A stretch of DNA of 64,000 nt from Candidatus Micrarchaeota archaeon (GCA_964643685.1 CAZXTN010000001.1:64001-128000); one strand, 5' to 3'. Positions 10,347-52,076 are shown, numbered from the stretch's first letter. Translations and numbers: made by a program. The notes: generated from the sequence alone by a model not told the origin.

Positions 10347-10353
10347 ATTTAAA

Positions 10354-11856: not shown

Positions 11857-12153
11857 AGAAAAAAAAGATAAACCTAAACAAAAACAAACGCCCTAAAAGA
11901 AAAAAAAAGACACAAGTTAATAACAAAATCAGAGCAACAACATGCCTATTTGATTTACTGAGAATTCAGCTGCATTTTGAAACATCGGCTTAATAATAGC
12001 CAACAGCAAAATAGCTGCAATTGCTACAATCACAGCCAAGTAAATAGGCGTCCAATTCTGTCCCTTCATCATAAACAAATCACTTCAAGTAATAACAAAA
12101 GAAAAACAAGTATAAAAACCTTTAACAAAAACAAAAAAAAGAAAAAGAAGGAT

Positions 12154-12567: not shown

Positions 12568-12652
12568 ACAAAAAACCACCTCTTTAAGATTAATTAAAAA
12601 AAAGAAACAAAAGTATAAAAAGCTTTTCACGCAAAAAGTTAATCAAATAATT

Positions 12653-13063: not shown

Positions 13064-15141
13064 CCGAGAACACCTGACATTTTAGAAGCAAAGAAAGCTG
13101 AAATGAAAAAGAAAAGCAGGGCAATAGGCAGACTCTTGGCTATCACTGACTTCACTGTCAGGTCATTGTCCCCTTCTTCTATTTTAGAAGTGAAGAATAA
13201 GAGAATTAAAGTCACTTGAATTACGTAAATTGCTATGATTATAAGGAAAGTCTGTGAAGAGGGGATTTGTGCAAGGGCTTCTGGATTCGAGCATAAATTA
13301 ACTGAACTCATGCCTCCTTCTGCCATTCCAGCACTTGAGCCAAGTTGTCCTGTTTTTCCACATGCTGATTTCATAGCGTCAATTATTATCTTCTGCAAGG
13401 CTGTTGTTATTCCAAGCACAAGAGGGCCTATGAAAAAAGCAATTGACTTCATCATTGAAGTGATTTCATCTAGTAATGACTTTATTTTTTCATTGATTTT
13501 CTGAGAATCTCTTAATTGCAGTGAAAGGGAAATAAGCGAACGCGCCGCGTGTTGAACTCCTAAGCTGATTGAATCCACTATTATTTTAAAACCTCCCCTG
13601 ATAAGAGTCGAAGGCACATTTTTTAATGCGCCGTAAACAGGGTCAAACAAAGCTCCTTCTACAGTCATTCCCATGTTGTTAATGTTTTCATCTGCCTTGT
13701 TGAAAACATCTGCTATTTCATTTCCTTTCATGAACTGGGCAGTGTAACCCATTGCTTCTTCCATTGGACGGTTTTCGCCTAAACGAGAAGCAAGGATGTA
13801 AATGGAATCCTGGAATCCTTTCTCCATTTTCATTATTTTCAATTGAATTTTTCTCTTAGCACTGACTTGCCCAAGCAAGTAAATAGACAAGAAAGCGCTG
13901 AAGCCGAAGAAAACTCCAGCTATTCTGAAGAAATGAAAGTAAGCAGTGACAGCTTCCTTGTTCCAAGCTTCAGGAGGGGGGTTAAGCAAAGGATCTACTA
14001 CAAAAGCAGACAAGGCGAAGACAATCAAGCCAACTGCAAGCGCAACTGCTATTGTAGGTACTGAAATTTTGCCTATTTTCATAAATCCTTTTTTAGGAAG
14101 ACCAGGATAATTATCTGGAATTTTAGGAGGGGTGTAGACAGGAGGGCGTTTTGCAAGGATGGTGCGAGCGAACATTACAGTCATTAAGGGAATTGCAATG
14201 TTGTACATGAGAATCAAATAAATTGTTTTTCCAAGAGGAAGGCCAGCCATGGCAGAGCCGATTGGAAGCATTATGATGAGAAGAAGAGGAAGGAGAACTC
14301 CTACATAGTAAAGGTAGACACTTGGTTGCCTCATTTCAGCAGCGTATTTTCCCATGTTTTCTTTCAAGCTTTCAAGAGTGTCGCTTACTGCTTTTTCTAA
14401 TAAAATTTCTCTTTTTGCTTCGTCGACTTCAATAACTGAAGAGCGAATAACCATTAACGCGTGCTTGAATTCATCAGAGTACTTTCCCCACTTGTAAGCA
14501 AGTTCATCAAGCCCTTCTTCAATTGTGTTGAATTCCCCTACTTTTGTCTTCCATGATATTTTTTTCAAGTCATCTGCTATTTTTCCCTTACCGTGTTCAG
14601 CTGCGAAGTCAACTGCTTTCTCCAAGTTCGGCGAAAGTTTCATTGACATAACCATGTAATTGATTATTTCAGGAATGTATGTGACTGACTTCATTTTCAA
14701 GTCCTTGGCAGCTGAAACAGGGTAGTTCTGCAAGTAAAAGGAAATGAAAAAAGGAAGAAGCAAAGCAGGCATGCCCACATACACTAAGTAAATGGTTGCG
14801 CCTGGAGGAATTACTCCGAAAACTTGGAAGAAAAGGTCAATTATTACAAATAAGAACAAGGGAATTGAAATCAAAGCACCTATGAACAAGCCAAGCATTG
14901 GAGCTGCATTAACTTCCCTTGGCTTTAAGTCCCAGCCGAGAAAATCAAGAGCAAGCTTGTAATCTTCCTTTTGAAACACGTTAGGTGCTTTGAACATTTT
15001 GCCTGCTTTTCGGCATAACTTGACATACCAGTTGCTGGATTTTCCCCTGCTTGGAGAATCTGCTCCGAAGTCGCTTTGTATTTTTTTAAGAAAATCATCT
15101 TCTTCTTGCTGCGGCGATTTTCTTTTGCTTGATTGCTTCAA
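13060..15141 (-). CDS. Type IV pilus membrane platform protein (TadC/FlaJ-like, two T2SSF-like repeats)
   Basis: Multiple TM helices, repeated MKLSPNLEKAV / LGENRPMEEAM elements, directly downstream of the secretion ATPase. Confidence 0.8.
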   Translation of the reverse strand: MKQSSKRKSPQQEEDDFLKKIQSDFGADSPSRGKSSNWYVKLCRKAGKMFKAPNVFQKEDYKLALDFLGWDLKPREVNAAPMLGLFIGALISIPLFLFVIIDLFFQVFGVIPPGATIYLVYVGMPALLLPFFISFYLQNYPVSAAKDLKMKSVTYIPEIINYMVMSMKLSPNLEKAVDFAAEHGKGKIADDLKKISWKTKVGEFNTIEEGLDELAYKWGKYSDEFKHALMVIRSSVIEVDEAKREILLEKAVSDTLESLKENMGKYAAEMRQPSVYLYYVGVLLPLLLIIMLPIGSAMAGLPLGKTIYLILMYNIAIPLMTVMFARTILAKRPPVYTPPKIPDNYPGLPKKGFMKIGKISVPTIAVALAVGLIVFALSAFVVDPLLNPPPEAWNKEAVTAYFHFFRIAGVFFGFSAFLSIYLLGQVSAKRKIQLKIMKMEKGFQDSIYILASRLGENRPMEEAMGYTAQFMKGNEIADVFNKADENINNMGMTVEGALFDPVYGALKNVPSTLIRGGFKIIVDSISLGVQHAARSLISLSLQLRDSQKINEKIKSLLDEITSMMKSIAFFIGPLVLGITTALQKIIIDAMKSACGKTGQLGSSAGMAEGGMSSVNLCSNPEALAQIPSSQTFLIIIAIYVIQVTLILLFFTSKIEEGDNDLTVKSVIAKSLPIALLFFFISAFFASKMSGVLG

Positions 15142-17383
15142 TTTGCCTCCTCCTCTGCACTAGTCTTTCAACCTGCTCTTTTAAAACCCATTCTTTCCAG
15201 TCTTTTTTCGCCTGCTCCCAGTCAACAAAACCCTGCGCTTGCCTCTGGTCTTCTAAAATAAGCAGCCACTTGTCATTAGCAGGCACTGTGAATTCAGCTT
15301 CAAGCAGCTGCGGAATGTTGTATTTTCTTTTCATTTCAACTAAGAAGTTCTTGGTTTCAGCGCGTGCATGAATGTCATCCCATAAGTCACTGACTTTCAA
15401 ACCACGTTTTTTTGCTATGCGTGGGAACAATTCAGAACGCTTCAACTCCTCTTGGTTTATGTAATGAGTGTCTTTTTCAGCGTCAAATTGAAGAATGTTA
15501 ATAAGCCCTCCTTCTTTTTCAGGGTCCTCGTACCAGTGTTTTCCAATTTCAGTTATTTCAACTAGCCTCCTGTTTCTTTTAAGAGAACCTTTGAATCTCA
15601 CTGGAGCTGAAGTGACTACTACGTCAGTTGCTTTGAATGAGGTGTTAGGCACTCCCAAGTCATTTACTATCCTGTCCCATACTGAGTAAGCGTTTTCACC
15701 GTGAATTGTTCCCATTACAACGTTTCCAACAGCACCTACTCTCATTGCTTCATACAAAACTTGGGCTTCTTTTGAACGCACTTCTCCTACTATCAATACA
15801 GAGTCACCGAGACGCAAAGCAGTTCTTAATGCTTCTTCAGGTGGCACTTCTGCGCTTGTTCTTGAAACACTTATTGCTGACTGCGTTTTCAGCCTTTGAA
15901 TGTTGTAACCTAGTTTTTTCATGTAAGGCACTGGAATTTCAAGAGTGTCTTCTTGTACAATTATTCTCGCTGATGGCAGTATTTCCAGCATTAAAGCCAT
16001 GAGCATTGAAGTCTTACCAGCTCCCCTAGAGCCGTTGACTAGAGTTGATGCCTGCGCGTCTATTAGGAAAGACAGCAAGCCAGCTGCAAGTGGATTAACC
16101 ATTTTAACGTCAATGAATTGAGGCAGAGTCCAAGGCGTCTGCTTGTGTAATCTTAAAGCAAGTGCTATGCCGTCAGGGGATAAAGGAGGACCTATTACAG
16201 CTACTCTTGTTTGAAGAGCGTTTAAGTCCAAGTCCATTACTGGATGCGCTTCGTCAAAAGGCCTTCCTGAAAGCGAACGGAATCTTGAGATTATTCCCTT
16301 TGCTTCTTGTTCAGTGAAAAGCACGTTTGTCTGGCAGCTGCCATATTCTCCATGCACGACGTAAACTGGTTTTGTGCCGAGAGGAGCGTCCATGTAAACG
16401 TCTGTGAGCTTCCTGTCTCTTAAAAGCAGTTCCATCATGCCGTAGCCGACAGTGTAACGGGTTACTATTTTAGCTAATTGCTGTGTTTCTTTTCCTGTTA
16501 TTATTATTTTGTTTTTCTGAGCTAAGTCAGAGATTGTTCTTTCGTAAATTTTAGCAAAGTAGTTTCTGATGTCTTCTGGTGTCATGAACCTGATTCCTTT
16601 CGGGCGGTAGGATGAAACAAGTTCTCTTGTCTTGGTTAGCAGGAAGTATTTTTCAGGGGACAAGTTGAATTCAGGTGGGTTGATGTAGTAGAGGAATTGT
16701 ATTTTTTCAGGGTGCTTGTAAATGTTGACAGTCGCGTCTTCAACTATGTATTGGTCAACTAGTTCCACGTTTGCAGGAGTGTGGAAAAAGACATTTGAAG
16801 ATACAAACGCCGGTTTTATTTGAACTTGAAACAAGGAGTGGTAAATTGCTCTTCCTTTCGGCACTTTTCCAAGTTTTTTAAGAATAAGCTTTACTTTTTT
16901 AATCAAGGTTGTTCTTTCAAAAGCGTTGTACATGAAAGCAAGGGTTCTTAAGAAGCCGTCGTCTCCTCCTGAAGCTATTCTCTGCTTTTCTTTCTTGATT
17001 AATTCAACTAACTGCAAGTAAGCTTGAATAGGGTCTGTTCTAAGAAGCTCCTGTGCTATCATTAAAACTTGCTGATTTCTTTCTTTAAGCACTTCTTCGC
17101 TCGCTTTTCCAAGACGGGATGGAGTCCACACTCCTTCTCTTAAGAACAAGTCATATAATTCAGCTATTTCTTTAATCATTTTTGTCTGTTTTTCATCGTA
17201 AATGTTTTCATAAACATCTGACAAGACAATTATGTCAGGATCAGTTTTGCCTGCTTTTTCAATGACTTCGCTCATCACTGAAGGAAAATCAGCTATGCTT
17301 GCAGAAGCTCCTTCGCCTCTGTAATCTATTATTAAATACCTCTTTCCCCCTTCTACTTTTATGGTGTAATCATGCCCAGACAT
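15095..17383 (-). CDS. Type II/IV secretion system ATPase (VirB11/CpaF/FlaI family)
   Basis: Walker A GSRGAGKT, Asp box QEDTLE, Walker B LIVGEVR, His box GTIHG. Confidence 0.92.
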   Translation of the reverse strand: MSGHDYTIKVEGGKRYLIIDYRGEGASASIADFPSVMSEVIEKAGKTDPDIIVLSDVYENIYDEKQTKMIKEIAELYDLFLREGVWTPSRLGKASEEVLKERNQQVLMIAQELLRTDPIQAYLQLVELIKKEKQRIASGGDDGFLRTLAFMYNAFERTTLIKKVKLILKKLGKVPKGRAIYHSLFQVQIKPAFVSSNVFFHTPANVELVDQYIVEDATVNIYKHPEKIQFLYYINPPEFNLSPEKYFLLTKTRELVSSYRPKGIRFMTPEDIRNYFAKIYERTISDLAQKNKIIITGKETQQLAKIVTRYTVGYGMMELLLRDRKLTDVYMDAPLGTKPVYVVHGEYGSCQTNVLFTEQEAKGIISRFRSLSGRPFDEAHPVMDLDLNALQTRVAVIGPPLSPDGIALALRLHKQTPWTLPQFIDVKMVNPLAAGLLSFLIDAQASTLVNGSRGAGKTSMLMALMLEILPSARIIVQEDTLEIPVPYMKKLGYNIQRLKTQSAISVSRTSAEVPPEEALRTALRLGDSVLIVGEVRSKEAQVLYEAMRVGAVGNVVMGTIHGENAYSVWDRIVNDLGVPNTSFKATDVVVTSAPVRFKGSLKRNRRLVEITEIGKHWYEDPEKEGGLINILQFDAEKDTHYINQEELKRSELFPRIAKKRGLKVSDLWDDIHARAETKNFLVEMKRKYNIPQLLEAEFTVPANDKWLLILEDQRQAQGFVDWEQAKKDWKEWVLKEQVERLVQRRRQIEAIKQKKIAAARRR

Positions 17384-17944
17384 AAAACCACTGCATTCAA
17401 AAAACAGTTGAAAACTGCCTTGATATTCATACTAAGCATAAGTGCTTTTTATACCTTATTCTGGTTAATTTTAAAAAATTTGAATCTGTACCCATTGAAA
17501 AAAGCGACTGCAATAGCAGCTTATAAAATGCTTGAATTAATTGGAGTTAAAGCAGGTTTGGTTTTAACAGCAGAGCCTTCAATAACAGTTGGGAAAGTGA
17601 CTGCGCAGATAACTAACTTATGCGCAGGAGACTTAGAAATAGCTTTGATTACAGCTATTATTTTGTCAACTTTTGACAGGACATGGAAAAACAGGGCTTG
17701 GGGAGTCTTGTTTGCATGGCTTTTAATTTTAATTATCAACCCATTGAGGATATTTGCTGTGCTTGCTGTCGGTTACTATACTTCCTGGCAGTGGGCTGAC
17801 TTCACTCATGACGTGCTGTTCAGGCTGACTTTGCTTGTCGTGATAGTTTTTTATTACTTCATTTGGTATGTAAAAAATGAAAAAATAAAGAAAAAGGTAT
17901 TGAAATGGGCAGAGAAAAAGGGTTTTCATTATTCACTCCATTAA
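17372..17944 (+). CDS. Archaeosortase/exosortase family protein
   Basis: Multi-TM protein with Cys-Arg-His triad contexts TNLCAG, INPLRI and FTHD. Start is uncertain (TTG 17408 possible). Confidence 0.8.
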   Translation: MPRHKTTAFKKQLKTALIFILSISAFYTLFWLILKNLNLYPLKKATAIAAYKMLELIGVKAGLVLTAEPSITVGKVTAQITNLCAGDLEIALITAIILSTFDRTWKNRAWGVLFAWLLILIINPLRIFAVLAVGYYTSWQWADFTHDVLFRLTLLVVIVFYYFIWYVKNEKIKKKVLKWAEKKGFHYSLH

Positions 17945-18949: not shown

Positions 18950-21900
18950 TTGAAAATGAATTTAAAAGAAATTTATTTGAAAATTGAAGACAAGTGGTTT
19001 GACTTGCTTGATTCTCTTGATGAAAAAGGAGTGCCTGTTTACAAGGCAGTGGATCCTCTTGAAAAAAAAGGCATACCTACCTTGCCTGTTTTCATAGCTC
19101 TTCTTCTTGCTTTTACTTTCTTAATAACTTCTCCTATGACTTCTTCTCCTTCAATGCTTAAAATAACAGTAATTAACCAAGAAGGACAGCCACTGGCAAA
19201 TGCCAATATTACTTTGCTTGATTCACAGTTAAACCAAGTTGCTTCGCTTCAAACAGACGCGTCAGGGCAAGTTGAATTGAATTTGAAAAAAGGAACTTAT
19301 TACAGCAACATAAGAGCAGAGGACTGCGACAGCGCCATTAATGAAGAAATTTACTTCGTGTCAAACATGCAGGAAAAAGAAATTGAGTTAACATGCCAAG
19401 GGGTTTCACTTGCTGGAAATCAAAGCAGTTTCTGCTTCAATCCATCTGAAGTAGGGGATGTTGAAGTTAAAAAATACCATTTAGGAGTTGAAGCAAGCAG
19501 TGAAGACTGCGGAACTGACGAATGCGTTTTTTCCCCTGAACCTGGAAACACTTACATTTTTTCAACGCCTGATTACGTGTCAAGGCAATTGACTTACGTT
19601 AACTTGATGAATTACTTAAACAGCGAAGAATGCATTGACATGGATGAAAGGATAACTGTCCCTGAAAACCCTCAGCCTGTTTTAGTTGAAGTTAAAAACA
19701 GCGACGGGAACCTGCTTTCATTTGCAACAGTCCAGCTAGTTAACCCGAATGACACAAGCGTTGCATTGTATGAAAAAATGACAAGCGAGAATGGAACAGC
19801 TCTTTTCAAAGTAGAGCTTGGAACTGTTTTCAAAGTAAAAGTAAGCGGAACAGAAGAAACCCTAACTTACATTGATTCAAAAGCTTATGAAACGCCATTA
19901 GGAGGGCTTAACGTAAGCGTAAAAGTAGATTTAAGCGCGTCAAGCCACATTAAAATTTACGAAAAAACAGAACTTGGAAAAGTAGATTCAAAAAACACGC
20001 AAGTAACAGTCATAGACAAAGAATTAAAGCAAATTGTGGCAAGCAAGCAGACAAATTCAACAGGAGAAGTCGTGCTTGGTGTGGAAAAGAACAAGGAGTA
20101 CAAGCTTGCAATATGGAAAAAAGGATTTAATTACACTGAAACTGAATTGACAGGAGGAGAAGATAAGGAGATAACTCTCCATCCTGTTCTTGAAAACCAA
20201 GTTGGAGCAATAAGAGTAAAAGTAATGCTTGAAGATGAAAAATTAGGAGGAGCAACAGTGCATTTGAAAACAAGCGACGGAATGCCAACAGGAATATTCG
20301 CTCCTCCAACAAGATCAAACGGTTACACTTCATTCAGTAACGTGCCTGCAGGAAGCTACTGCCTCACAGTAAGCAGGAAGATAGGAAAAGAAAGCGACTG
20401 CGAAGCAGTTACAGTAACAGCAGGTGAAACAAGCGATGTTGAAATAAAACTTGAAAAAAGAAAGTATCAAGTGACAGTAAAGGTAACAGATGAAAGCGGA
20501 AGCCCAATAGACGAAGCAAGCGTAAAATTAATTGATGAAAAAGGAGAAGAAGTATGCAGCAGCACAAGCGAGTTGTTTGAAGGAGAATTTACATGCGACG
20601 TCAAAGAAGCAACTAAAATAAAAGCAACTGCAAGATATGAAGATAATGGAAAAATATACTCTGCTTCTGCTTATCTTGGAAAAATAGAGCAACCAGTAGA
20701 ACAAAAACTAGTTTTAAGAGAGCTTACAACAGATGTGAAAATAATTGGAATAAAAGCACCTGATGGAACAGAATTAAATTTAGGTTCAGATAAGATTAAA
20801 GCAGGGGTAACAGGTTACAAGGCGATAGTGTCAATTGGATTGCCTAATTACTCTGATTCAAAATGGAGCAATGTTGAATTCACTATAAACGAAGACACAG
20901 GGACATTCGAGTTCTACTCAGGACAAGATGACTACTTCGAAGCCTCAAGCACTGATGAAAAAGCAAGCACAAGAACATTCAATTTAAAAGCATCTAAAAA
21001 AGACTATGAAATAGGAAATCATCAGCTTGAAATTCCATTCAGAGTAAAAACAATAAACGCTGAAACAGGAGAATATGAATTAAAAATTTCAGGAAAATGG
21101 GAAGCACCTAACGGCGATTCATTCAATTATCCTCCAGGAGATGAAGAGGAAAAATTAAAAGTTAATGTGACAGCCGAGCAATGCGAGCAAGTTGGAGACT
21201 TCAGCGTATGCTATTCAATACAGCAAGGGGAGAATTGGGTCAACCCAGTTGCACAAGGAAGCCTTTCTTTTGAAACAGGAGACAAGATAAACATTTCAAT
21301 GAAGATAACAAACGAAGGAAGCGATTTCAAAGGAGAAATTCAAGTAAATGATGATTACTATAAAGGCAGCTTGTTCTCAGAAGTAAGCTCAATAAAAAAG
21401 CAAGGAAGCAGCCAAAACCTGATGCTAGGAAGAGATTATCAATTAAACAACTATGCTTTAAGCATAGAGGAAAACCCTAACACAGAGCTTAAAAACGGAG
21501 AAACAATGCTTTTAAACTTTTCATTAAAAGCAATAAAGCCAGATGCAACTCAGCTTACAGTGAAAATAGGAAGCGGGGAACAAGCTCTTCCTTTGATAAT
21601 AATAACAGGTGAACAAGATGCAAGACTTGTTATTGACAGTGACATTTATGACTTAAGCAATAACATCAGCTTCCATTTAGAATCAGTTGACGGAAGCAAA
21701 GTGCCAATAGGAGAGTATTACGGTTCAGGTTCCTGCGTGAAAGGATTATCAGGCTCTGACATCTGCCTTACTTCAACAAATTACCAGCTAGGGTTAATTA
21801 GTTTAGATTATGAAAACAATGAAGTGACAGTGACATTAACAGCAGACAATAACTTAGTGGGCATGAACAAAGTGCATTTTTCAATAACAGGAACTAGGAT

Positions 21901-24900
21901 AAAAGACATTGATGAATACAAGGATGTTGAATCATGCATTCAAGACGTTACAATCTACCCTATAATTGCTTATCAAACAGTTCCATGCAGCATTTACTTG
22001 AAAACAGGAGAAGCTTCAAGATTTGAATCAAAAAACAACCCAGACAGCACTGGCTTAGCTGCATGCACAACTGAAACTTACCCTTCTTCAAGCGATTCTC
22101 AAAACAGTCCTTACCAAATTATTTTCGGAAGCAAATGCGGAGCTGAAATAAAGGATATCAAGTACATAATAAACCCAGAGCAAGAGGACAACTTCAATCC
22201 AGGAATACTCACAGACCACTTCAACGAAGCAGCAGACTTATACTTTGATTACACACCTCCTTTCTCAGAAGGAACAGTATCAAACCAAGATATTTACAGA
22301 CAAATCAACTTAACCATCACATTTTCAAATGGAGAAGTTGAGAAAAAACTAAAACTCGCGCTGCCATTAACTTTAATAAACCAGGACATAAGCGCTTTCA
22401 ATGAAAACAGCATATTCCATGCATTTAAAACAACAAGTTTGGACAACCCTGACTGCTCAACAAATTACTGCACATTAGAACAATTTTTCAAGTCACTAAC
22501 AGAAAAATTAAACGCAAACCAGCAGATAGGAACAATAACAGTTAATTTAATAGGAGCAAATGACAGGATAAACGAGATAGAATTAAAAGAGATAATTCAA
22601 AAAGCAACAGGAGCAGATGTTCACTCTGGAGAACCAAGCGAAGACGTAAGCACAGGAACTAGCCTTCAAATTTACGTACCTGATCAATTGCTAAGCAATT
22701 CCATAAGCGATGGAAAATACGCTTTTTCAATCATTAAAAAAGCAGACAACATTTACGAAATAACAGGAGTAAGAGCAATAACCCAAATCAAAACAGGAGA
22801 CATTGACAAAATCGAGTCACACTTAACTTACTCAAAAACAGATTATACAGACATCATAGATAATAAGATGAAAACAGGATGGAAAATAAAAACAGAAGGA
22901 ACAAGCTTAACAGACACAAAAAAACAAGAAATAAACAATCACTTCAAAAGTGTTTTAAGAGCAATGTATGAAGATGAGGACAACTTGAATGAAGATGGAA
23001 CAGTTTCAGGAAGCCTTACAATAAACAATCAGGGAAGCGAAGCTAGGAACCAAGTGACTCTTGGAATCTGCAACACTTCAGATGATTCATTCGAAACTAA
23101 CAAAAAAGACATCACTACTTTATGCGGAAAATACTTCCTTTACTCAGGAGAATCAGCTGACTACAGTGGAATAATATTTGAAGAAACAGTAGGAGGAAAA
23201 GGAGTTTACTTCATAGCAACTAATGAAACAAACTTAATCACTTTACTGGACAATTACAAGAAAGCAATAATAAACACAAGAATAGGAGGAGTAACAGGAG
23301 GAAGTTCCTTAAAAATTTACAAAGGAGAAGCATGCTCTAACGGAGAAGAAGTAGGAAGTGACAATTGCGACGTGCAGTTTGAATCTAAGATACTAGCAAG
23401 AGCTCCTTCAACAATACATGTTTACTGCGGAGGAAGCATAACATGTAACCTCGATGACACAAGTGACGAGCTAACAAAAGCATTGAAAGAATACGGAGCA
23501 AAGGCAATTGGTTACGGAGAAGCTGAAATAAACCTAATTGAAGAAACAAACAAAGATGATGCTGACGTGATTATAACAACAAGAGACTCTGATGAATTTG
23601 AAGCATTGCAAAATAACTTCAGAGCAGTTGAAGGAATTCCAACAACCATTGAATTGCCTGACAATTACACTTTCACTGACATCAAAGGAGCAAAAGTAGT
23701 CATAGCTGAAAATGCAGAAGACGCTGCAAAAGTGCTTGAAAACAACGGAGCTCCATTGCAGTTGACAATGCAAGAACTTGACTCTGCATTAAAACAAGCA
23801 ATTTCAGACATAAGCAGCAGCGAAGATGAAGACAGCACAGAAGCAGTTACAAGAACAATGTTTGTAAATATTACAGACGCAAGCTGCTACATTGACTTAC
23901 AAAGCAGTTTAGAAGATGAAAAAGCAGGGTTAAAGATAATAAAGGGAGGGTTAAATAAGGATTACTTTGGAGAGGATTCTTTCAAAGAAAACTCAGAAAA
24001 CTGTAACTGGGTAACTAGCAGCGACATAAACTTACTTCCAGCAGAGTATTTGATTGAAATAACAAATAGTTTTACAGATTGCAATGCAAATAAGGATTAT
24101 CTTATTTATGCTTATCCATTAACAAGAAAGTATGATAACTTACTAAAAGAAAATGGTTATGACGTGTCAAAAGAAACTGACTTATGCGGAGCAGACATTA
24201 TAATGCCAACAACAAAACCAACTTCAATAACTCTTGCAGAACTAGTGCAAAAAATTTGGGGGGTTGAAATAGATGAGAACACTCCGCTTCCTTACAATTT
24301 AGGCACTTTTTATATAACTGATGAAAAATTAAAAATAATTGATAATGATGACCCAGAATTGAATACTGGAGCACTCATTGGACTAACTGACTGGTACAAA
24401 GAAGCTGCTTGGAATGATGAACCTTTAGCTAAAAGTCCAATATGCAATCTTGGGCCAGGTGGCCAGGATGAGGGAGACATAGGCACAGAAAAAGGAGGAA
24501 ATTGGGAAGTAATCTCTTGGAATGATGGAAATGAAATTCATAAAACTAATCCTGAAATTCTGGAAAAAAGTTATTGTATTAACTTGTGGCCAGAAGACAA
24601 TCCTAGCCCTGCTAAAAAAGGAGACATTGTCACTATCCAAATATTGGCTGATTGGCATTTAGCACAAGGAAGATTAAATACAAGGCATAAAACTCAAGTA
24701 AGAAATGTCTTTATATCAGATATCTCAAATGTTTGCCCTGAAGGTTATGATTTCAAGCCAGCTGAATTAGGACAAACAGGAGGAGTATGCATAAAAGAAG
24801 CTTCAGGAAGCAATTCAGAAAAATCAAGAGAGTATGTTGCTGCAAGTGGAACAATTTGCAGAACAAGTTCTGCATTTAATGAGTGTAAGGATGCAAGCAA

Positions 24901-25102
24901 TTTGGATGTAACAGATTACAATCCAGAAAATTGTGGCACTTCTAAAGAAATAACAACTTTAACCACAATTACCAACTACTACCATTGCCCATCTAATTAC
25001 ATTTGCACTGAAGAAGCTAATTATATTGGAGGAGGGATATGCTGTCCTAATGACCATCCTAATTATGATCCAACAACAGAACAATGTTACTCTGAAAGTT
25101 AA
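18950..25102 (+). CDS. Giant membrane-anchored surface protein (2050 aa) with repeated carboxypeptidase-regulatory/Ig-like beta domains and Cys-rich tip
   Basis: N-terminal TM, repeated motifs such as V.V.N.EG.PL..A.V.L and T..SG.V, Cys-rich C-terminus, GGAGG RBS. Confidence 0.8.
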   Translation: MKMNLKEIYLKIEDKWFDLLDSLDEKGVPVYKAVDPLEKKGIPTLPVFIALLLAFTFLITSPMTSSPSMLKITVINQEGQPLANANITLLDSQLNQVASLQTDASGQVELNLKKGTYYSNIRAEDCDSAINEEIYFVSNMQEKEIELTCQGVSLAGNQSSFCFNPSEVGDVEVKKYHLGVEASSEDCGTDECVFSPEPGNTYIFSTPDYVSRQLTYVNLMNYLNSEECIDMDERITVPENPQPVLVEVKNSDGNLLSFATVQLVNPNDTSVALYEKMTSENGTALFKVELGTVFKVKVSGTEETLTYIDSKAYETPLGGLNVSVKVDLSASSHIKIYEKTELGKVDSKNTQVTVIDKELKQIVASKQTNSTGEVVLGVEKNKEYKLAIWKKGFNYTETELTGGEDKEITLHPVLENQVGAIRVKVMLEDEKLGGATVHLKTSDGMPTGIFAPPTRSNGYTSFSNVPAGSYCLTVSRKIGKESDCEAVTVTAGETSDVEIKLEKRKYQVTVKVTDESGSPIDEASVKLIDEKGEEVCSSTSELFEGEFTCDVKEATKIKATARYEDNGKIYSASAYLGKIEQPVEQKLVLRELTTDVKIIGIKAPDGTELNLGSDKIKAGVTGYKAIVSIGLPNYSDSKWSNVEFTINEDTGTFEFYSGQDDYFEASSTDEKASTRTFNLKASKKDYEIGNHQLEIPFRVKTINAETGEYELKISGKWEAPNGDSFNYPPGDEEEKLKVNVTAEQCEQVGDFSVCYSIQQGENWVNPVAQGSLSFETGDKINISMKITNEGSDFKGEIQVNDDYYKGSLFSEVSSIKKQGSSQNLMLGRDYQLNNYALSIEENPNTELKNGETMLLNFSLKAIKPDATQLTVKIGSGEQALPLIIITGEQDARLVIDSDIYDLSNNISFHLESVDGSKVPIGEYYGSGSCVKGLSGSDICLTSTNYQLGLISLDYENNEVTVTLTADNNLVGMNKVHFSITGTRIKDIDEYKDVESCIQDVTIYPIIAYQTVPCSIYLKTGEASRFESKNNPDSTGLAACTTETYPSSSDSQNSPYQIIFGSKCGAEIKDIKYIINPEQEDNFNPGILTDHFNEAADLYFDYTPPFSEGTVSNQDIYRQINLTITFSNGEVEKKLKLALPLTLINQDISAFNENSIFHAFKTTSLDNPDCSTNYCTLEQFFKSLTEKLNANQQIGTITVNLIGANDRINEIELKEIIQKATGADVHSGEPSEDVSTGTSLQIYVPDQLLSNSISDGKYAFSIIKKADNIYEITGVRAITQIKTGDIDKIESHLTYSKTDYTDIIDNKMKTGWKIKTEGTSLTDTKKQEINNHFKSVLRAMYEDEDNLNEDGTVSGSLTINNQGSEARNQVTLGICNTSDDSFETNKKDITTLCGKYFLYSGESADYSGIIFEETVGGKGVYFIATNETNLITLLDNYKKAIINTRIGGVTGGSSLKIYKGEACSNGEEVGSDNCDVQFESKILARAPSTIHVYCGGSITCNLDDTSDELTKALKEYGAKAIGYGEAEINLIEETNKDDADVIITTRDSDEFEALQNNFRAVEGIPTTIELPDNYTFTDIKGAKVVIAENAEDAAKVLENNGAPLQLTMQELDSALKQAISDISSSEDEDSTEAVTRTMFVNITDASCYIDLQSSLEDEKAGLKIIKGGLNKDYFGEDSFKENSENCNWVTSSDINLLPAEYLIEITNSFTDCNANKDYLIYAYPLTRKYDNLLKENGYDVSKETDLCGADIIMPTTKPTSITLAELVQKIWGVEIDENTPLPYNLGTFYITDEKLKIIDNDDPELNTGALIGLTDWYKEAAWNDEPLAKSPICNLGPGGQDEGDIGTEKGGNWEVISWNDGNEIHKTNPEILEKSYCINLWPEDNPSPAKKGDIVTIQILADWHLAQGRLNTRHKTQVRNVFISDISNVCPEGYDFKPAELGQTGGVCIKEASGSNSEKSREYVAASGTICRTSSAFNECKDASNLDVTDYNPENCGTSKEITTLTTITNYYHCPSNYICTEEANYIGGGICCPNDHPNYDPTTEQCYSES

Positions 25103-25182
25103 CCCTCTCCTTATTTCTTTTCTTTTTTTTCCTTAATGTTTTTATATCTTGTTTGTTTTTGTTTTAATTAGAAATTAGAGGC

Positions 25183-25605
25183 TTGTTGAAAATGTTTGTT
25201 TTAGGTTTGTTTGATTCCATGTTTAATGCAATGGGCGTTGGGCAAGACTTTAACTTGCTGATGCTTGGTTTTAAAATTGTTATTCTGCTTTACATTATTC
25301 AGTTTTTTAAAAACAGGTTCGGTGAATCGCCAGTAGTTACTTTGCTAGTGGCTGGAGTGGCTTACTTGTTCCTGTTCACAAGTTATTTCAAAATATTCGG
25401 GCCAATGATGTTTGTTTACTTGTTTGTGATATTTGGCTTTACTTCAATTTTGTTTGACTTGGCTATTGCAAAGCCGTGGAAAAGCATGGATATGCATGGT
25501 GAAATGGAAGCAGGGGAAGAAGAAGGAGGGCATGGTGTTCATCACAGTTTTAAAGAAGCTCAGCATCAGCAGCATAGTTTAAGGAAAATGAGAGCAAGGT
25601 ATTGA
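25183..25605 (+). CDS. Small membrane protein, family A, His-rich C-tail
   Basis: About 3 TM. Shares a helix-turn(G.S)-helix(Y) pattern with 25613, 26057 and 26284. Confidence 0.75.
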   Translation: MLKMFVLGLFDSMFNAMGVGQDFNLLMLGFKIVILLYIIQFFKNRFGESPVVTLLVAGVAYLFLFTSYFKIFGPMMFVYLFVIFGFTSILFDLAIAKPWKSMDMHGEMEAGEEEGGHGVHHSFKEAQHQQHSLRKMRARY

Positions 25606-25612
25606 AAGGTGT

Positions 25613-25957
25613 TTGAAAGAAATGAAGTTGAAAGCAGTTGAAAAGAGGGGTTTTTTGAATACGAATTTTTTAACCATTATCCTCGTGTTTGTTTTGATAA
25701 TGCTTTTGCCTATTGTGTTTTCAGTTAGTTTTCCTATTATCAAGCTTATTATTATGGCTTATTTTGCTTTGCTTATCTTTATTTTTGTCAGGAATATTCT
25801 TGGAAATTCTATTCTTACTTATGTTATCAGCGGTTTGTTGATTTACATTTTAGTTGTTAAGTTCTGGTACTTGTTTGCGCCTGCTTACATGCTTTATTTG
25901 ATTGGAAGCATGTTTTTAAGCGGTTTGATAATCTTTGGTTTACAAAAAGGACCGTAA
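25613..25957 (+). CDS. Small membrane protein, family A, possible class III signal (KRG/FL)
   Basis: Almost entirely hydrophobic, contains FVRNILGNSILTYVISGLLIY. Confidence 0.75.
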   Translation: MKEMKLKAVEKRGFLNTNFLTIILVFVLIMLLPIVFSVSFPIIKLIIMAYFALLIFIFVRNILGNSILTYVISGLLIYILVVKFWYLFAPAYMLYLIGSMFLSGLIIFGLQKGP

Positions 25958-26056
25958 AGTCAATTTAATAAGCTTAGAAGCAGGGTGTTTTGCAGGGAGT
26001 GTAGTTATTTTAGTTTTCAATAAAGCTTAAAAACAAGGAGTTGTTTAATTAAAAAC

Positions 26057-26281
26057 ATGGGTTTGCTTTGGAGCGATGTTAGAATTGCTTTAATGATAAT
26101 TGTTTTTATTTATTTGTTGCAGTGGACTGTTGATTTTACTAAGTCTAAGGCTTTGGGTTTGATTTTAGCTTCTGTTATTGCTTATTTGACTTTTTATCAG
26201 CATTATGAAATTTTGGTGTTTATTTTGGTTTTCTTTTTCGGTTATCCTTTTTTTGAAAAATTGGCAGAGGGTTTTGATTAA
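26057..26281 (+). CDS. Small membrane protein, family A
   Basis: IYLLQWTVDFTKSKALGLILASVIAYLTF. Confidence 0.75.
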   Translation: MGLLWSDVRIALMIIVFIYLLQWTVDFTKSKALGLILASVIAYLTFYQHYEILVFILVFFFGYPFFEKLAEGFD

Positions 26282-26283
26282 TT

Positions 26284-26583
26284 ATGGATACTTTTACGAC
26301 TGTTGTGATGTTGTTGATTGCTTTCATGGCTTGGAGCATGGGTTTTGATTACATTTTTTTAGGCTTAGCTGCTTTTACTATTTTGTTGAGTCACAGTTGG
26401 GGCATGGCTAGTATTTTGATTTTGGGAATTGGCGCTGTTTATTTGTTTGGCTTGAAGGAGTATTGGTTTGTTTTGTTTATTATTATAATTGCTTTTGTTT
26501 TGATTAAGAATGAGAAGCAGGGGAGTAATGCTGGAGGGGGAAGTTATTCGCCTGAGTTGATGAACTTGCTTGGCGGTTATTGA
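26284..26583 (+). CDS. Small membrane protein (family A-like)
   Basis: Several short hydrophobic helices, polar tail, 2-nt gap after the previous gene. Confidence 0.7.
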   Translation: MDTFTTVVMLLIAFMAWSMGFDYIFLGLAAFTILLSHSWGMASILILGIGAVYLFGLKEYWFVLFIIIIAFVLIKNEKQGSNAGGGSYSPELMNLLGGY

Positions 26584-26605
26584 TTTAAAAAATTGGGTTT
26601 TTTGA

Positions 26606-26938
26606 ATGGCAAGTGATTCGCAGTTGTTTATTGGTTTTTTAGTTGTTGTTTTGCTTGGTTTTGTTTACAATCAAATTTGGCTGAGTTTTGTAATTGGAGC
26701 TGTGTTGTTTTTAATGTTGTTTTTACAGGAGGAGCCTGTGAAAAAAAGTTCTTCTTCTAGTGTGATTGTCAGGCCTATTAAAGTTCAGAGGAAGTATGAG
26801 GAAGGTGCTTCGATTTACCCTAAGAAGATGGAGATTCATTTAGCTGAAAGAGGCCCTCCTAAAGCTTGGGAGAGGGGGCCTGAGCCTATTGGAAAGGCAG
26901 TTGGTAAGGGTTTGAAGTGGTTGTTTAATCATTTTTGA
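26606..26938 (+). CDS. Small membrane protein, family B (TM hairpin + YPxKM + C-terminal amphipathic helix)
   Basis: IYPKKMEIH ... IGKAVGKGLKWLFNHF. Confidence 0.75.
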   Translation: MASDSQLFIGFLVVVLLGFVYNQIWLSFVIGAVLFLMLFLQEEPVKKSSSSSVIVRPIKVQRKYEEGASIYPKKMEIHLAERGPPKAWERGPEPIGKAVGKGLKWLFNHF

Positions 26939-26989
26939 AGGTGTTTTGGCATTTGAAATGGAAAAAGCCTTGTTTTTTTAAAGTTTGAA

Positions 26990-27343
26990 TTGCTTAATAT
27001 AAAGTTGATGGACAGTAGAAGTATTGTTTTGATACTCGCTTTGGTTATTTTTTCTTATTACTTAGGCTTGAATTGGCTTGTGTTGCTGTTGTCAATTGTA
27101 TTGTTTTTAATTGGGCTTGGTTCTGTTAAGAGAAGTTCAGGTGAAGTTAAGAAAGAAGTTAACAAGAACCCTGATGTGATTTATCCTGTGATTTACGAGG
27201 ATGTTGGAGAGCCTCCTTTGCTTTATCCTGAAAAAATGGGGGTTAAAATTTACGATGCTTCTAAGAAGACAAGTGCTTTGGAAGATGCTTTAAGGGGCAT
27301 TGGTTCAGGAGCAAAGGCTTTGATTAAATTTTTAACAAAGTGA
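26990..27343 (+). CDS. Small membrane protein, family B
   Basis: LYPEKMGVK ... ALRGIGSGAKALIKFLTK. ATG at 27008 is the likely start. Confidence 0.75.
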   Translation: MLNIKLMDSRSIVLILALVIFSYYLGLNWLVLLLSIVLFLIGLGSVKRSSGEVKKEVNKNPDVIYPVIYEDVGEPPLLYPEKMGVKIYDASKKTSALEDALRGIGSGAKALIKFLTK

Positions 27344-27356
27344 ATGAAAGAGTTGA

Positions 27357-27704
27357 GTGAAAATGAATTCAAGGACAGTTTTGTTAGTGAGTTTAATTGC
27401 AGGTGTTGCTGTTTATTCTTCAATGCCTTCAATTGGATTCTTGATAATTGTGTTTAGTTTGATTGGCTTGCTTGCAACTGTTTTTTCAAAAAAGCAGGAG
27501 GCGAAGAGCGGAAGCAGTTATAAGATGGGTGAGGAGATTGTTATTGAGTCAACAAAGCAGCTTCCTTACAGGATTCCATCTAAAATGAATTTGACTTACT
27601 CTCCTAATTCAAAGCAAAGGAAGCCGTGGTGGACTAAAGTTACAAGCAAGGGCATTTTGCCTAATGTTGCTAAAGGCATTGGAAAGTTGTTGAAAGAGTT
27701 GTGA
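27357..27704 (+). CDS. Small membrane protein, family B
   Basis: RIPSKMNLT ... NVAKGIGKLLKEL. Confidence 0.75.
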   Translation: MKMNSRTVLLVSLIAGVAVYSSMPSIGFLIIVFSLIGLLATVFSKKQEAKSGSSYKMGEEIVIESTKQLPYRIPSKMNLTYSPNSKQRKPWWTKVTSKGILPNVAKGIGKLLKEL

Positions 27705-27725
27705 GAGAACTATTTTTTTAAGTGG

Positions 27726-28238
27726 TTGCTGATGAGAAGTTTGCTTATTGGACTTGTGCTTGTTTTAGTAGGTTGGGTTACTGGAAGCAGTGTTCTTGTT
27801 TTTTTAGGTGTTGTTTTGACAGCTGTTGTTGTTTTTCTTGAAAAAGAAGAGAAAGTTGTTTATGAGTATGTGGATAACAAGCCGAAGCATGTTGTTATTC
27901 AATCAAAGCCAGTTGAAACCAAGGCTCCTCTTCCAAATGAAGTGCTTTCGCCTGTTGGCAGGGCTATTTATGACAAGGAAGTTAAGCCGTTGGAGGATAA
28001 GGTTAAGAAGTTGAGAGTGGATTCTCTTGTTGCAAAAGGAGAAGTAAAGGAGAAGCTGTTGAAAGAGTTGAAGGATGCTGAGAAGGAGTATGAGGAGAAA
28101 TTAAATAAAGTGTCTGCTCTTCCTTTCGGAGTTAGGAAAGAGGCTTCTAATCCTGTTTACAGTTTGTTTAAGGGAATTGGAATAAACTTGAGTGTTAAGA
28201 TTGTTTCTAAGTTGTTTGATAAGAAAGACAAGAAGTAG
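27726..28238 (+). CDS. Membrane protein, family B-like with inserted coiled coil
   Basis: TM hairpin, PLPNEV, coiled-coil segment, C-terminal SLFKGIGINLSVKIVSKLF. Confidence 0.7.
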   Translation: MLMRSLLIGLVLVLVGWVTGSSVLVFLGVVLTAVVVFLEKEEKVVYEYVDNKPKHVVIQSKPVETKAPLPNEVLSPVGRAIYDKEVKPLEDKVKKLRVDSLVAKGEVKEKLLKELKDAEKEYEEKLNKVSALPFGVRKEASNPVYSLFKGIGINLSVKIVSKLFDKKDKK

Positions 28239-28248
28239 GAGAGTTTTT

Positions 28249-28824
28249 TTATTTTTTTTCAAGTTTTAAGAGCATTTTTTTGTTTATTTCAATTAACTGC
28301 TGCTGCAGGTCAGCCATGCCTTTGATTAATGGCTTGAGTTCAATAAGCATTTCTTTGACTTCTCTTATTTCGCTTTTAAGGAAGGAAGTTTCGTTTAAGT
28401 TTTTTTCAATTTCTTCGTGTTTAGTGTGCAGGGTGTTTATTTTTTGATTTATTGTTTCAAGTGTCTGCGCGTGTTGTGAAAATTTGTCATTCAGGGAATT
28501 TAAGGAAGAGGAGTGTTCAGTTACTTTTCCGTGTATTTCATTGACTTCTTGTTTTATGCCTTTTGTTTCTTCAGTTGCTTTTTTAACTTCTTCAACTGCT
28601 GGGTTAAAAGCGCTTCCGCTTAGCACGACTTCGTGGACGTCATTAACTTTTTCATGAATGTCTTTCAAGTTAGGCTGAGCTGATACAGAGCCGATGAGCT
28701 CGTCTACCTCAAGTGAAGATAAGCCTATTGCTGTTAAGGTGCTTTTGATTTCTGCTGTTGAGCTTCCTTCTTTTTTCATTGATTTTATTATGTTTAAAAT
28801 CTTGTTTTTCTTATCCTCGTCCAT
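28249..28824 (-). CDS. Coiled-coil protein with small N-terminal helical domain
   Basis: Heptad-like pattern over most of its length. Confidence 0.7.
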   Translation of the reverse strand: MDEDKKNKILNIIKSMKKEGSSTAEIKSTLTAIGLSSLEVDELIGSVSAQPNLKDIHEKVNDVHEVVLSGSAFNPAVEEVKKATEETKGIKQEVNEIHGKVTEHSSSLNSLNDKFSQHAQTLETINQKINTLHTKHEEIEKNLNETSFLKSEIREVKEMLIELKPLIKGMADLQQQLIEINKKMLLKLEKK

Positions 28825-28881
28825 TATTCATAGTTAAAAACATTTAAGTTTAAATACCCATCCTATGTAAATTAACAAATA

Positions 28882-30342
28882 ATGGAGTTAATCAGGGGCC
28901 CTTGGAAAAATTTATTCAAAGGCAATTGGGATGGTTATGAAATAGAGGTTAAGGAGAATCCTGAAAAGGAGATTCTTACTTTGATTTATGAAAAAGAAAA
29001 GGCAGGGGCAGTGAGTTTAGTAACTAGGTTTTATCACGTTCAGGGAAATGCGCATAGGTTAACTGAAGAGTTTAAAAATTACTCAACTATCATTGAAAAG
29101 CAGTTTCCAACTCATAAGACTGTTTTTTTCAGCATATCTTCTGGCCCAAGTTACAGTTCGCTTGAACTCTTAAATCAGGTTGTTGAAGAGCAGTTTAAAA
29201 AAATAGAGGCAGAAGCAGAGGATTTGAATGAAAAAACAAGACTTTTTTCCCTGACTTTGACTGAATTGAAAAGAGCAGGCAAGGATGTTCAAAGAGAGTT
29301 GCTGTCAGATCCTCTTTTAATGACTTCTCTGATAACAGGAGAGGGAAAAGGAGTAGAGCCTGTAAGGGCAAGCGTAAAAGTTCCTCTTGGAAAAACGCTT
29401 GAAGGAGTGGAGAAGGAAGAGGATATTAATTCTTTCTTAAGCACTTTAATTATAGGAAATGAAGTTGAAGTTGAAAAAGCAGTGCATGTTATTCTTGAAA
29501 ACGCGGTGCTTGCTGGAAAAATAGGCATAGTGTTTGATTATGACGGAAGTTTTTCAAAAATGAATTACCCTAACAGGAATTTTGATTACCAGAAAGAACA
29601 GCAGGTGCAACCAATCGGGCTTCCTATTAAGCATGCTGAGATAAGTGAACTTGGCATTGATTTGAAGCTGCTGGATAAGAAAATGCTTGCTGAAATTTTT
29701 TCAATTGACTCTGAAGGTTTCATAGCAGAAGAAGCAAGGGAAGTGATGGCAACTGCTTTTGAAAAAAACAAGGAGGAGATTAATTCTCTTGAGGATCTTG
29801 AACAGAAAGTGATGATGACAAGCGATGAAACTAAAAAGTTTCATGTTTACAGGGCTGTGAGGTGGTTGAAGGTTCTTGGAAAAAAGTACCCTGGTTATTT
29901 CAAAGGAGAAACAAGTTACAGGAAATTCATACCTCCTTATTCCAAATCAATGGGTTCGATAATAAGAGTGAATGTAAGCGGAGAAAAGAGCATGGTAAAA
30001 AAAGCTCTTCTTTATTCTCTTGTAAAAACAATGGAAAAAGATTATGAAAAAACATTCTCTTCATTTCAATTGAAATCAATAGCATGCTTGGTTAAAGGAA
30101 AAGATTACTTTCCAACTGAGCCTGTGAAGGAAATTGAAAAAGAGTTGATTAAAACTTATTCAAAGGCTCTTGAAAAAGGAATTGGAGTGGCAGCTGGTTT
30201 TGAATCAGAAGCAGAAGCTAATGAATTCATGCTTGACACTGAAACAATCAGAATAAGCTTTATTTCGCAATCAGAAGCAGCTGTTAAGGAAAGGAACTCA
30301 CGCCCTTACAGGATAAAATTAAGGCAGAACATGTCTTCTTGA
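28882..30342 (+). CDS. HerA/FtsK/VirB4-like P-loop protein with degenerate Walker A
   Basis: VPLGKTLEG...STLIIG-NEVEVEKA-VHVILEN...GIVFDYDGSF follows the HerA/DUF87 N-terminal strand order but lacks GxxGxGKT. Confidence 0.6.
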   Translation: MELIRGPWKNLFKGNWDGYEIEVKENPEKEILTLIYEKEKAGAVSLVTRFYHVQGNAHRLTEEFKNYSTIIEKQFPTHKTVFFSISSGPSYSSLELLNQVVEEQFKKIEAEAEDLNEKTRLFSLTLTELKRAGKDVQRELLSDPLLMTSLITGEGKGVEPVRASVKVPLGKTLEGVEKEEDINSFLSTLIIGNEVEVEKAVHVILENAVLAGKIGIVFDYDGSFSKMNYPNRNFDYQKEQQVQPIGLPIKHAEISELGIDLKLLDKKMLAEIFSIDSEGFIAEEAREVMATAFEKNKEEINSLEDLEQKVMMTSDETKKFHVYRAVRWLKVLGKKYPGYFKGETSYRKFIPPYSKSMGSIIRVNVSGEKSMVKKALLYSLVKTMEKDYEKTFSSFQLKSIACLVKGKDYFPTEPVKEIEKELIKTYSKALEKGIGVAAGFESEAEANEFMLDTETIRISFISQSEAAVKERNSRPYRIKLRQNMSS

Positions 30343-30372
30343 AACGAGGAGGAGTGAAAAGAAGAAAGTTTG

Positions 30373-30819
30373 TTATTTATTAAGATTGTCTTTGATTAAT
30401 TCTTTTACTTGGTTTAAAGTAACGTATTCCATTGGGTTTACAGTGTCTAACACGTATTTCATTTCATTAATGTCTTGGCGCATGGAGTCAATTAATTCCC
30501 TGTTGTAGTTAATTTCCTTGACTAAGTCTTTTACAAGAGAATTAAGTTCTTCAATTTGGGAAACTATTTTAGAGTCAATTTGCGGCTGAGTAGAGACAAG
30601 CTCATGGCTTTGCATGGTGGAGCTTCCTGTCCTTTCAAGTTCTTTAAGCTTCTTGTTGTGGTTGACAAGAGTTTTTCCAATAATCTGCTCGTTTTTCTCA
30701 ATTACTCTCATTCTCTGAGCAACTACTCTTATTTTAGAATCAAGGGATTGAATTTCTGTTTTCAATTGCCTTAAAACTGCTTGCCATTCCTTGTCAGCCA
30801 TTAATTCAAATAAAAACAA
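30373..30819 (-). CDS. Coiled-coil protein
   Basis: Two heptad-rich segments separated by an S/T/Q linker. ATG at 30801 is a possible start. Confidence 0.7.
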   Translation of the reverse strand: MFLFELMADKEWQAVLRQLKTEIQSLDSKIRVVAQRMRVIEKNEQIIGKTLVNHNKKLKELERTGSSTMQSHELVSTQPQIDSKIVSQIEELNSLVKDLVKEINYNRELIDSMRQDINEMKYVLDTVNPMEYVTLNQVKELIKDNLNK

Positions 30820-52050: not shown

Positions 52051-52076
52051 AAACACGAAAAAGAAGTGAAGATTAA

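Follow-up and report, generated by a model that had tools for sequence, protein, structure and literature searches.

The region described here lies within a 64,000-nucleotide (nt) stretch of DNA from Candidatus Micrarchaeota archaeon (GCA_964643685.1, CAZXTN010000001.1:64001-128000), referred to below as the window, with positions counted from its first letter. Between positions 25183 and 30819 the window carries a block of eleven open reading frames (ORFs), of which eight encode small membrane proteins (m1-m8), two encode coiled-coil proteins (cc1 and cc2) and one encodes a larger protein (big). Judged from its sequence relatives, the big family is a catalytically dead, new branch of the HerA superfamily, encoded in a conserved, lineage-specific membrane gene block. 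The eleven ORFs, together with a promoter-like element that precedes them, are as follows (lengths in amino acids, aa).

25140-25147, plus strand: TATA-box-like element TTTTATAT, ~45 nt upstream of ATG 25192, read by eye
25183-25605, plus strand: m1, 140 aa (137 aa with the start at ATG 25192)
25613-25957, plus strand: m2, 114 aa
26057-26281, plus strand: m3, 74 aa
26284-26583, plus strand: m4, 99 aa
26606-26938, plus strand: m5, 110 aa
26990-27343, plus strand: m6, 117 aa
27357-27704, plus strand: m7, 115 aa
27726-28238, plus strand: m8, 170 aa
28249-28824, minus strand: cc1, 191 aa, soluble
28882-30342, plus strand: big, 486 aa
30373-30819, minus strand: cc2, 148 aa, soluble coiled-coil protein

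The genes m1-m8 are separated by intergenic gaps of 2-99 nt. An earlier reading of this DNA (the original prediction) had described them as eight consecutive, co-oriented genes for membrane proteins of 74-170 aa, and both the ORFs and a hydropathy scan agree with this description. The same reading had placed a coiled coil, a P-loop-like protein and a second coiled coil after m8; the heptad scores given below bear this out, with the addition, not stated at the time, that both coiled-coil genes lie on the opposite strand. The cc1 gene is convergent and on the minus strand; cc2, also convergent and on the minus strand, and the polymerase gene at 30854 point away from each other. An oligo-T run, again read by eye, lies between m1 and the preceding gene, which encodes a 2050-aa protein, and is followed by TTTTATAT. 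If the archaeal promoter and terminator rules hold here, these two elements suggest that the membrane operon is probably its own transcription unit and that m1-m8 probably start a transcript of their own. A scan with a bacterial consensus, which is uninformative for an archaeon, predicted 13 promoter-like sites, where 13.2 would be expected, and no terminators.

The big protein comprises an N-terminal β-rich domain (residues 1-93), a long helix (94-121) and a RecA-like core (~165-486). Taken alone, the window's copy matched no Pfam family at E≤1 (E, expectation value) and nothing in the PDB in a single-sequence search, and a word-indexed protein search returned only 7 relatives. An exhaustive profile search recovered 220 representative clusters at E≤0.001 (193 at ≤1e-10 and 138 at ≤1e-30), mostly of 470-520 aa. 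From the 150 listed of these 220, 89 near-full-length sequences were chosen for the family alignment; the other 61 listed (fragments and some full-length proteins, for example P0014) and the 70 unlisted matches were excluded. A structural model built from 8 sequences was poor, with a predicted local distance difference test (pLDDT) value of 58.5, and was superseded by a model built from the 89-sequence alignment, for which pLDDT was 93.4 and the predicted template modelling score (pTM) was 0.73. The word-indexed search, repeated with this alignment, yielded at least 9 proteins and contributed nothing further.

Comparison of this model with the PDB using Foldseek gave 147 matches at E≤0.001. 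The first-ranked match was HerA (9x1l, E 2.5e-13), and the HerA structures 4d2i and 7wrw were matched at 2.4e-12 and 2.6e-11; HerA shares its overall fold with big over most of the length of the protein (E 2.5e-13 to 1e-9). VirB4 (4ag5_B) was matched at rank 48, behind HerA chains, with E 1.2e-8. At the sequence level the big-family profile matched YjgR (E 5.9e-7) and HerA 4d2i (E 6.6e-7) in the PDB, family positions 169-466 being aligned with HerA residues 114-409, and PF01935 was matched by 18/89 members of the family (E≤0.01). The Atlas neighbours of big are DUF87/HerA clusters. Residues 1-160 differ in this respect, having no usable Atlas match, since the structural rows obtained (TM-scores of 0.36-0.50) correspond to unrelated clusters. 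Against viral models, Foldseek returned generic HerA, FtsK and packaging ATPase folds only. The predicted structure and the profile comparisons together confirm big as a HerA-superfamily protein with a RecA-like core of HerA-type topology.

What sets big apart from HerA is the absence of both the Walker A and the Walker B motif. The Walker A pattern GxxxxGK[ST] is found at the P-loop site in 0/89 members of the family, and the four matches to the pattern elsewhere fall near reference residues 165-170 or 467. The consensus at the P-loop site is instead T-h-h-x-G-G-x-E-E-R-x-H-A, which in the window reads IIGNEVEVEKAV. At the Walker B position the window's protein has IACLVKGKD, and a Walker-B-like hhhh[DE][DE] is kept in 4/89 members. 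Residue E206 is invariant (89/89), as are W8, G170, R327 and R481, and R477 is nearly so. The invariance of E206 suggests that the P-loop site is under a different constraint, and the lack of Walker A in every one of the aligned members points to loss of the nucleotide site before the family diversified. On the reading favoured here, big has lost the conventional means of binding and hydrolysing ATP. The Walker-A-dead HerA/VirB4-superfamily protein that had been proposed from the window is therefore upheld, both for its fold, by Foldseek and profile comparison, and for its missing motif.

The characterised settings of HerA are not recognisable around big. No NurA, Mre11 or Rad50 family, as would be expected of HerA-NurA end-resection, was found among the block's neighbours in Pfam and NCBIfam scans, and in contrast to the HerA anti-phage systems (Sir2-HerA and DUF4297-HerA) the block contains no effector partner and no PADLOC match. 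In the literature searched, no description was found of stand-alone conserved pseudo-enzymes of the HerA superfamily, nor of the big family or the block, these being weak negatives as most subscription journals lay outside the coverage.

Hydrophobic segments were found in 8/8 of the small proteins m1-m8, and in neither cc1 nor cc2, in a Kyte-Doolittle scan (19-residue window, threshold 1.6). The m1 protein has ~3 transmembrane segments followed by an acidic, His-rich tail, and K31, Y79, G85 and D92 are identical in 71/71 aligned sequences of its family, K31 and D92 lying in or near membrane segments. Relationships among the small proteins were examined with hhalign, using three-sequence alignments for m5-m8 and a 70-sequence m1 alignment for comparisons with m1. 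The polytopic m2 protein matched the m1 family at 89.6% (E 1.9e-6), so that m1 and m2 are probable paralogues. For m3 the value was 40.6%, and within a small set of local ORFs the m1-family hidden Markov model (HMM) matched the m3 orthologues of the two related genomes described below (9.6e-5 in L002 and 4.4e-4 in L001); m3 is possibly a distant relative of m1. No paralogue of m4 was detected in the block (9.9% against the m1 family); this protein has a conserved C-terminal motif, YSPELMxLLGG.

The remaining membrane proteins share a different architecture. Pairwise hhalign values were 95.8% for m5-m6, 97.1% for m5-m7 and 97.3% for m6-m7 (E 2.2e-11; range 8e-9 to 2e-11), and m5, m6 and m7 are, by this comparison, clear paralogues. 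In a 12-sequence alignment, m5-m8 have a short N-terminus, a ~40-residue hydrophobic block, which would form a two-helix transmembrane hairpin, and a K/R-rich linker. The linker is followed by a strand-like h-x-P-[IV]-[IV]-[IV], then by P-x-x-[YI]-P-x-x-M and a Trp, and the proteins end in an amphipathic segment, [IL]G-x-[AG]-x-GK-x-L. In m6 the motif IYPVIYEDxGEPP is invariant at 12/13 positions in three genomes. The m8 protein shares the architecture, whereas its family link to m5-m7 is weak (13.7-34.2% only), and a charged insert is found in the window's copy of m8 only. The division of the eight proteins into two families, as originally predicted, therefore holds clearly for m5-m7 and probably for m1 and m2; it does not extend with the same force to m8, m3 is only a possible member, and m4 stands alone.

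The heptad scores of cc1 (0.82) and cc2 (0.85) exceed the 95th percentiles of 100 shuffles (0.62 and 0.63). In cc1 a small helical region at the N-terminus is conserved and residues ~76-164 show heptad periodicity, and cc2 contains two conserved motifs, NExIIGKTLxxHNKxLK and KYVLDxxNPxxYVT. Family matches of cc1 in Pfam, NCBIfam, PADLOC and PHROGs were sub-threshold coiled-coil matches only. Among these, an assignment to FlaC_arch was rejected (17 bits against a cut-off of 27.8, one of 64 coiled-coil matches), as was one to Rad50/SMC (NCBIfam, 14.4-23.9 bits against cut-offs of 567-1087).

Across the block as a whole, none of the eleven proteins scored above the curated cut-offs in Pfam, NCBIfam, PADLOC or PHROGs, in agreement with the earlier statement that no named family was recognised for any component. 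PADLOC returned 0 families for big and m1-m8, and coiled-coil noise only for cc1 and cc2. No transporter or respiratory-complex family was found with Pfam or NCBIfam at E≤1, where all matches were sub-threshold, the best being RseC_MucC (14 bits against 24.4). A match of m5 to TraL in NCBIfam was likewise rejected (13.9 bits against a cut-off of 30.95). In tblastn searches of plasmids and phages, big gave no match. Since no PADLOC or PHROGs family fits, plasmids and phages give no match and core archaeal genes surround the block, it appears to be neither mobile nor defence-related, which favours the interpretation developed below.

Relatives of the block were sought in a scan of one genome per species, with an alignment of the 8 closest big proteins as the query; 33 pattern matches were obtained, of which 2 encode a relative. 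These are L001, a metagenome-assembled genome (MAG) of a Candidatus Micrarchaeota archaeon, and L002, an archaeal MAG, and in both of them big is 37% identical to that of the window. The order m1-m8, cc1 (minus strand), big, cc2 (minus strand), family B DNA polymerase (PolB), a small ORF and an M24 peptidase is kept in the window, L001 and L002, orthologues of all ten small genes being present in the same order. In L001 there is 0 nt between m8 and cc1, and big and cc2 overlap by 4 nt. Identical columns in the three-way alignments range from 16/174 (m8) to 41/145 (m1). The conserved gene order and motifs in L001 and L002 indicate that the ten small genes are real. Searching the window, L001 and L002 locally with HMMs revealed no additional member of any of these families outside the block. 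In L001 (1-373) and L002 (1-579) the contigs end at or within ~160 nt of m1. Many m1-family records lie on contigs of only 600-2000 nt, and assembly may tend to fail immediately before this gene, where a variable or repetitive gene for a giant surface protein could lie.

A search with the m1 family returned 72 proteins. Eight of these records match a big-family record in the exact size of the longest contig (239374, 54919, 12514, 10668, 35650, 113002, 1076730 and 44108 nt); the matching contigs were found among ~65 big-side records of known size and were used as positive evidence only. We take this as placing big and m1 on the same contig in five assemblies in addition to the window, L001 and L002. 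In a FastTree phylogeny of the 89 big proteins the window falls in a 15-member clade (local support 99), which contains all three big-family members with m1 known on the same contig. For 18 more distant big clusters (8/10 and 10/10 examined) no contig match to m1 records was found, and such failures to match carry no weight, since many of the contigs measure just a few kb and each cluster was represented by its longest contig alone. The few named members of the big and m1 families are from Micrarchaeota (P0088, P0027, L001 and the m1 match P0207) or Diapherotrites (P0025 and P0038). The genes thus co-occur in related genomes, as judged from L001, L002 and the m1-family records, and match no known complex. 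One m1-family match, P0244, on a 758-nt contig, joins an N-terminal half resembling a cation-efflux protein (PF01545) to an m1-like C-terminal half and is a probable assembly chimera.

The window is chromosomal, low-GC archaeal DNA (GC fraction 0.34-0.41 in 2-kb windows), and its core genes include PAC2, the family B DNA polymerase, TYW2, S12, S7, EF-2 and EF-1alpha. The block lies directly after a locus that had been described as encoding a pilus, a sortase and a giant surface protein, an identification that Pfam supports for the following four products.

13060-15141, minus strand: T2SSF-like protein, 693 aa, unusually large
15095-17383, minus strand: T2SSE-like ATPase, 762 aa, unusually large
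17372-17944: exosortase-like protein, 190 aa (Exosortase_EpsH, E 8.1e-10)
18950-25102: giant protein, 2050 aa, with an N-terminal membrane helix, CarboxypepD_reg, Ig-like regions and a Cys-rich C-terminal part

At least four small pilin-like proteins (at 9789, 11305, 12154 on the minus strand and 12653 on the minus strand) have N-termini that read KKGQ, RKGQ, RGQA or NKGQ, each followed by a hydrophobic helix. These KGQ/RGQ-type N-termini, read by eye, are presumably class III signal peptides; the pilin-like proteins of 9789-13063 have no Pfam match. Positions 9789-17383 thus appear, from sequence features, to form a type IV pilus-like locus.

Taken together, the eleven genes may specify an assembly that is associated with the membrane, restricted to the lineage of Micrarchaeota-type DPANN and built around a HerA-derived, non-catalytic protein. 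This is put forward tentatively, with somewhat less than even confidence, and the physical association and the function of the eleven proteins are what we infer from their sequences. In such an assembly big would form a ring, by analogy with HerA, and would serve as a passive scaffold or portal and not as a motor. The m1-m4 proteins would provide an integral membrane platform, in which m5-m8 would sit as hairpins with both termini inside the cell (N-in/C-in). The cytoplasmic tails of m5-m8 could present their conserved strand-like motif to cytoplasmic partners and so hold these at the membrane, with the far end pinned by the amphipathic helix, and cc1 and cc2 could brace or position the ring. 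Energy, if needed, would come from another ATPase. As to the process served, we incline to a role at the cell envelope or surface, in contact, exchange or the support of pili, because these families occur only in a host-associated lineage and the block in this genome follows the pilus and giant surface-protein locus.

This design has an analogue in the archaellum motor, in which the RecA-like ring of FlaH, the coiled-coil ring of FlaX, and FlaF/FlaG are arranged around a T2SSE/T2SSF core. The analogy lies in the combination of a catalysis-impaired RecA-fold protein with coiled coils and small membrane-anchored proteins, and in the presence of a T2SSE ATPase, a T2SSF platform and pilin-like proteins in the same genome region. 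There are also clear differences: big is of the HerA type and not of the KaiC/FlaH type, the FlaC_arch match of cc1 is sub-threshold, the block lies ~8 kb and three genes away from the T2SSE/F genes, and no archaellin family was found with Pfam. A complex prediction that paired big, with its 89-row alignment, and residues 46-117 of m6, the tail, with an alignment of 3 rows, scored 0.01 against a mark of 0.32, which counts neither for nor against a contact.

Several observations weigh against a single membrane-associated assembly. The link to the pilus and adhesin genes comes from one genome, because the L001 and L002 contigs end at or just before m1, and the invariant K31 and D92 of m1 would also suit ion or solute handling. 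Three further points bear on whether the block is a unit at all. First, cc1, big and cc2 lie outside the membrane-protein operon, as separate transcription units on alternating strands. Second, the association of big with m1 is seen only inside the 15/89 clade. Third, the conserved block extends in all three genomes into the genes for PolB and a methionine aminopeptidase-like M24 protein, which are surely unrelated in function; as these are equally syntenic, synteny of the block among related genomes may be plain inheritance. The same three points favour an alternative in which there is no single system, and the membrane operon on the one hand and cc1, big and cc2 on the other have separate functions and are adjacent by inherited gene order. 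This is the strongest of the alternatives, yet we consider it unlikely. At only 37% identity in big, the eleven genes still keep their order and leave almost no space between them; the eleven families have no match in Pfam, NCBIfam, PADLOC or PHROGs, whereas the neighbours are ordinary core genes; and the tails of m5-m8 resemble docking elements for soluble partners.

The original prediction had likened the block to the Ced DNA-import system and to conjugative type IV secretion systems (T4SS). In a version of this idea adapted to the data, the hairpin proteins would be pilin- or VirB3-like and the HerA/VirB4-like ring would act as the inner-membrane hub of a conduit for transfer with a host cell, moving DNA or other macromolecules and powered by a separate ATPase, for example the upstream T2SSE-family protein. 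The block does resemble these systems in placing a HerA/VirB4-superfamily protein beside very small proteins with at least two membrane segments, VirB4 is among the structural matches of big (4ag5_B, as above, and 4ag6_B at E 1.8e-6), and upstream of the block lies the locus for a pilus and a giant surface protein, which includes a T2SSE ATPase. In the accessible text of PMC9905601, Ced, Ted and T4SS combine a VirB4-like ATPase with a VirB6/CedA-like channel of 6-7 transmembrane segments and a VirB2/CedA1-like pilin, and Ced pairs a VirB4/HerA-like ATPase with small proteins of two transmembrane segments. In addition, the accessible text of PMC11329633 reports host-derived tubes that enter a Micrarchaeota-type symbiont and so join it to its host, and names no symbiont-side component or partner. 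However, the analogy does not hold in the form first given. HerA structures score well above VirB4 (2.5e-13 against 1.2e-8), and with Walker A in none of the 89 aligned family members big lacks the motifs of an active VirB4-type ATPase. The block encodes no VirB6/CedA-like protein of 6-7 transmembrane segments, m1 and m2 having ~3-4 hydrophobic segments, and Pfam and NCBIfam detect no similarity of the small proteins to T4SS families, the TraL match of m5 lying far below its cut-off. The K/R-rich tails of m5-m8 look cytoplasmic, unlike those of an exported pilin, and the block is found among core chromosomal genes with no plasmid match. A conduit of this kind is accordingly regarded as improbable.

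A role in division, chromosome segregation or membrane remodelling, with a membrane-tethered ring of the FtsK/HerA superfamily and coiled coils at the division site, is more doubtful again. The FtsK-HerA superfamily is tied to chromosome segregation and division, a link that Iyer and colleagues reportedly drew in 2004. The cc2 and PolB genes are divergent neighbours in all three genomes, and this conserved adjacency, with the history of the superfamily, speaks for segregation or division. A HerA-domain protein has also been located at midcell in Haloferax, according to the accessible part of bioRxiv 10.64898/2026.07.16.738847. Against this, a dead ATPase cannot pump DNA, no known division family was matched in Pfam or NCBIfam, and the named family members are from Micrarchaeota and Diapherotrites only, whereas core division machinery is usually more widespread.

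Finally, m1-m4, with or without m5-m8, could be subunits of an ion or solute transporter to which the HerA-like protein is unrelated or regulatory; the invariant K31 and D92 in or beside the membrane segments of m1, and its tail rich in acidic residues and His, would suit this, but none of the eight proteins matches a transporter family at E≤1 beyond noise and the PF01545-bearing P0244 is read as a chimera, so that we give the idea very little credence.

Returning to the proposal of a membrane-associated assembly around big, a more specific form of it can be imagined, in which the block encodes a new kind of archaeal membrane machine, particular to Micrarchaeota and Diapherotrites-type DPANN. 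It would be a symbiont-side portal or docking hub for the exchange of material with the host cell, with the dead HerA ring held under the membrane by the four paralogous hairpin proteins and the two coiled coils. Such a portal might be the counterpart, so far missing on the DPANN side, of the tubes between cells that cryo-tomography has revealed. The hub and its link to the tubes are, taken jointly, speculation, and improbable as they stand. DPANN depend on other cells, and almost no molecules of the interface are known. The block is a conserved chromosomal set of eleven uncharacterised genes, whose only recognisable part is a HerA-type protein without its nucleotide site. If the proteins assemble as proposed, they would be targets for tagging and subtomogram averaging in cultivated Micrarchaeota co-cultures, the fold of a pumping ATPase would be shown to have been reused as a passive structural element, and several new families of small membrane proteins would be defined. 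If they do not, what is described here is a new inactive HerA family and a lineage-specific membrane operon.

Some further features of the window were observed outside the block. The archaeosortase-like 190-aa enzyme is encoded directly upstream of a 322-aa uncharacterised protein, which is followed by the 2050-aa protein; the latter may be a substrate of the enzyme. A second giant protein (5383-9738, 1451 aa) matches no Pfam family. A second T2SSF-like gene, at window positions 3-1207, is represented by two ORFs that overlap (12-533 and 506-1207). Each of them matches PF00482, and the gene may carry a frameshift or be divided by the edge of the window.

The RNA polymerase genes at 50578-53888 are split, with subunit B encoded as 490 + 603 aa and subunit A as 840 + 378 aa, an arrangement that is ordinary for archaea and serves as a lineage marker. 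Rfam tRNA matches were obtained at 46304-46424, 48569-48633, 48832-48925 and 49658-49768, two of them weak (33.2 and 30.9 bits); those of 111-121 nt are probably intron-bearing. ARAGORN reads 48838-48925 as a tRNA with the four-base anticodon 'taaa', and these matches are likely to represent intron-containing or unusual tRNA genes.

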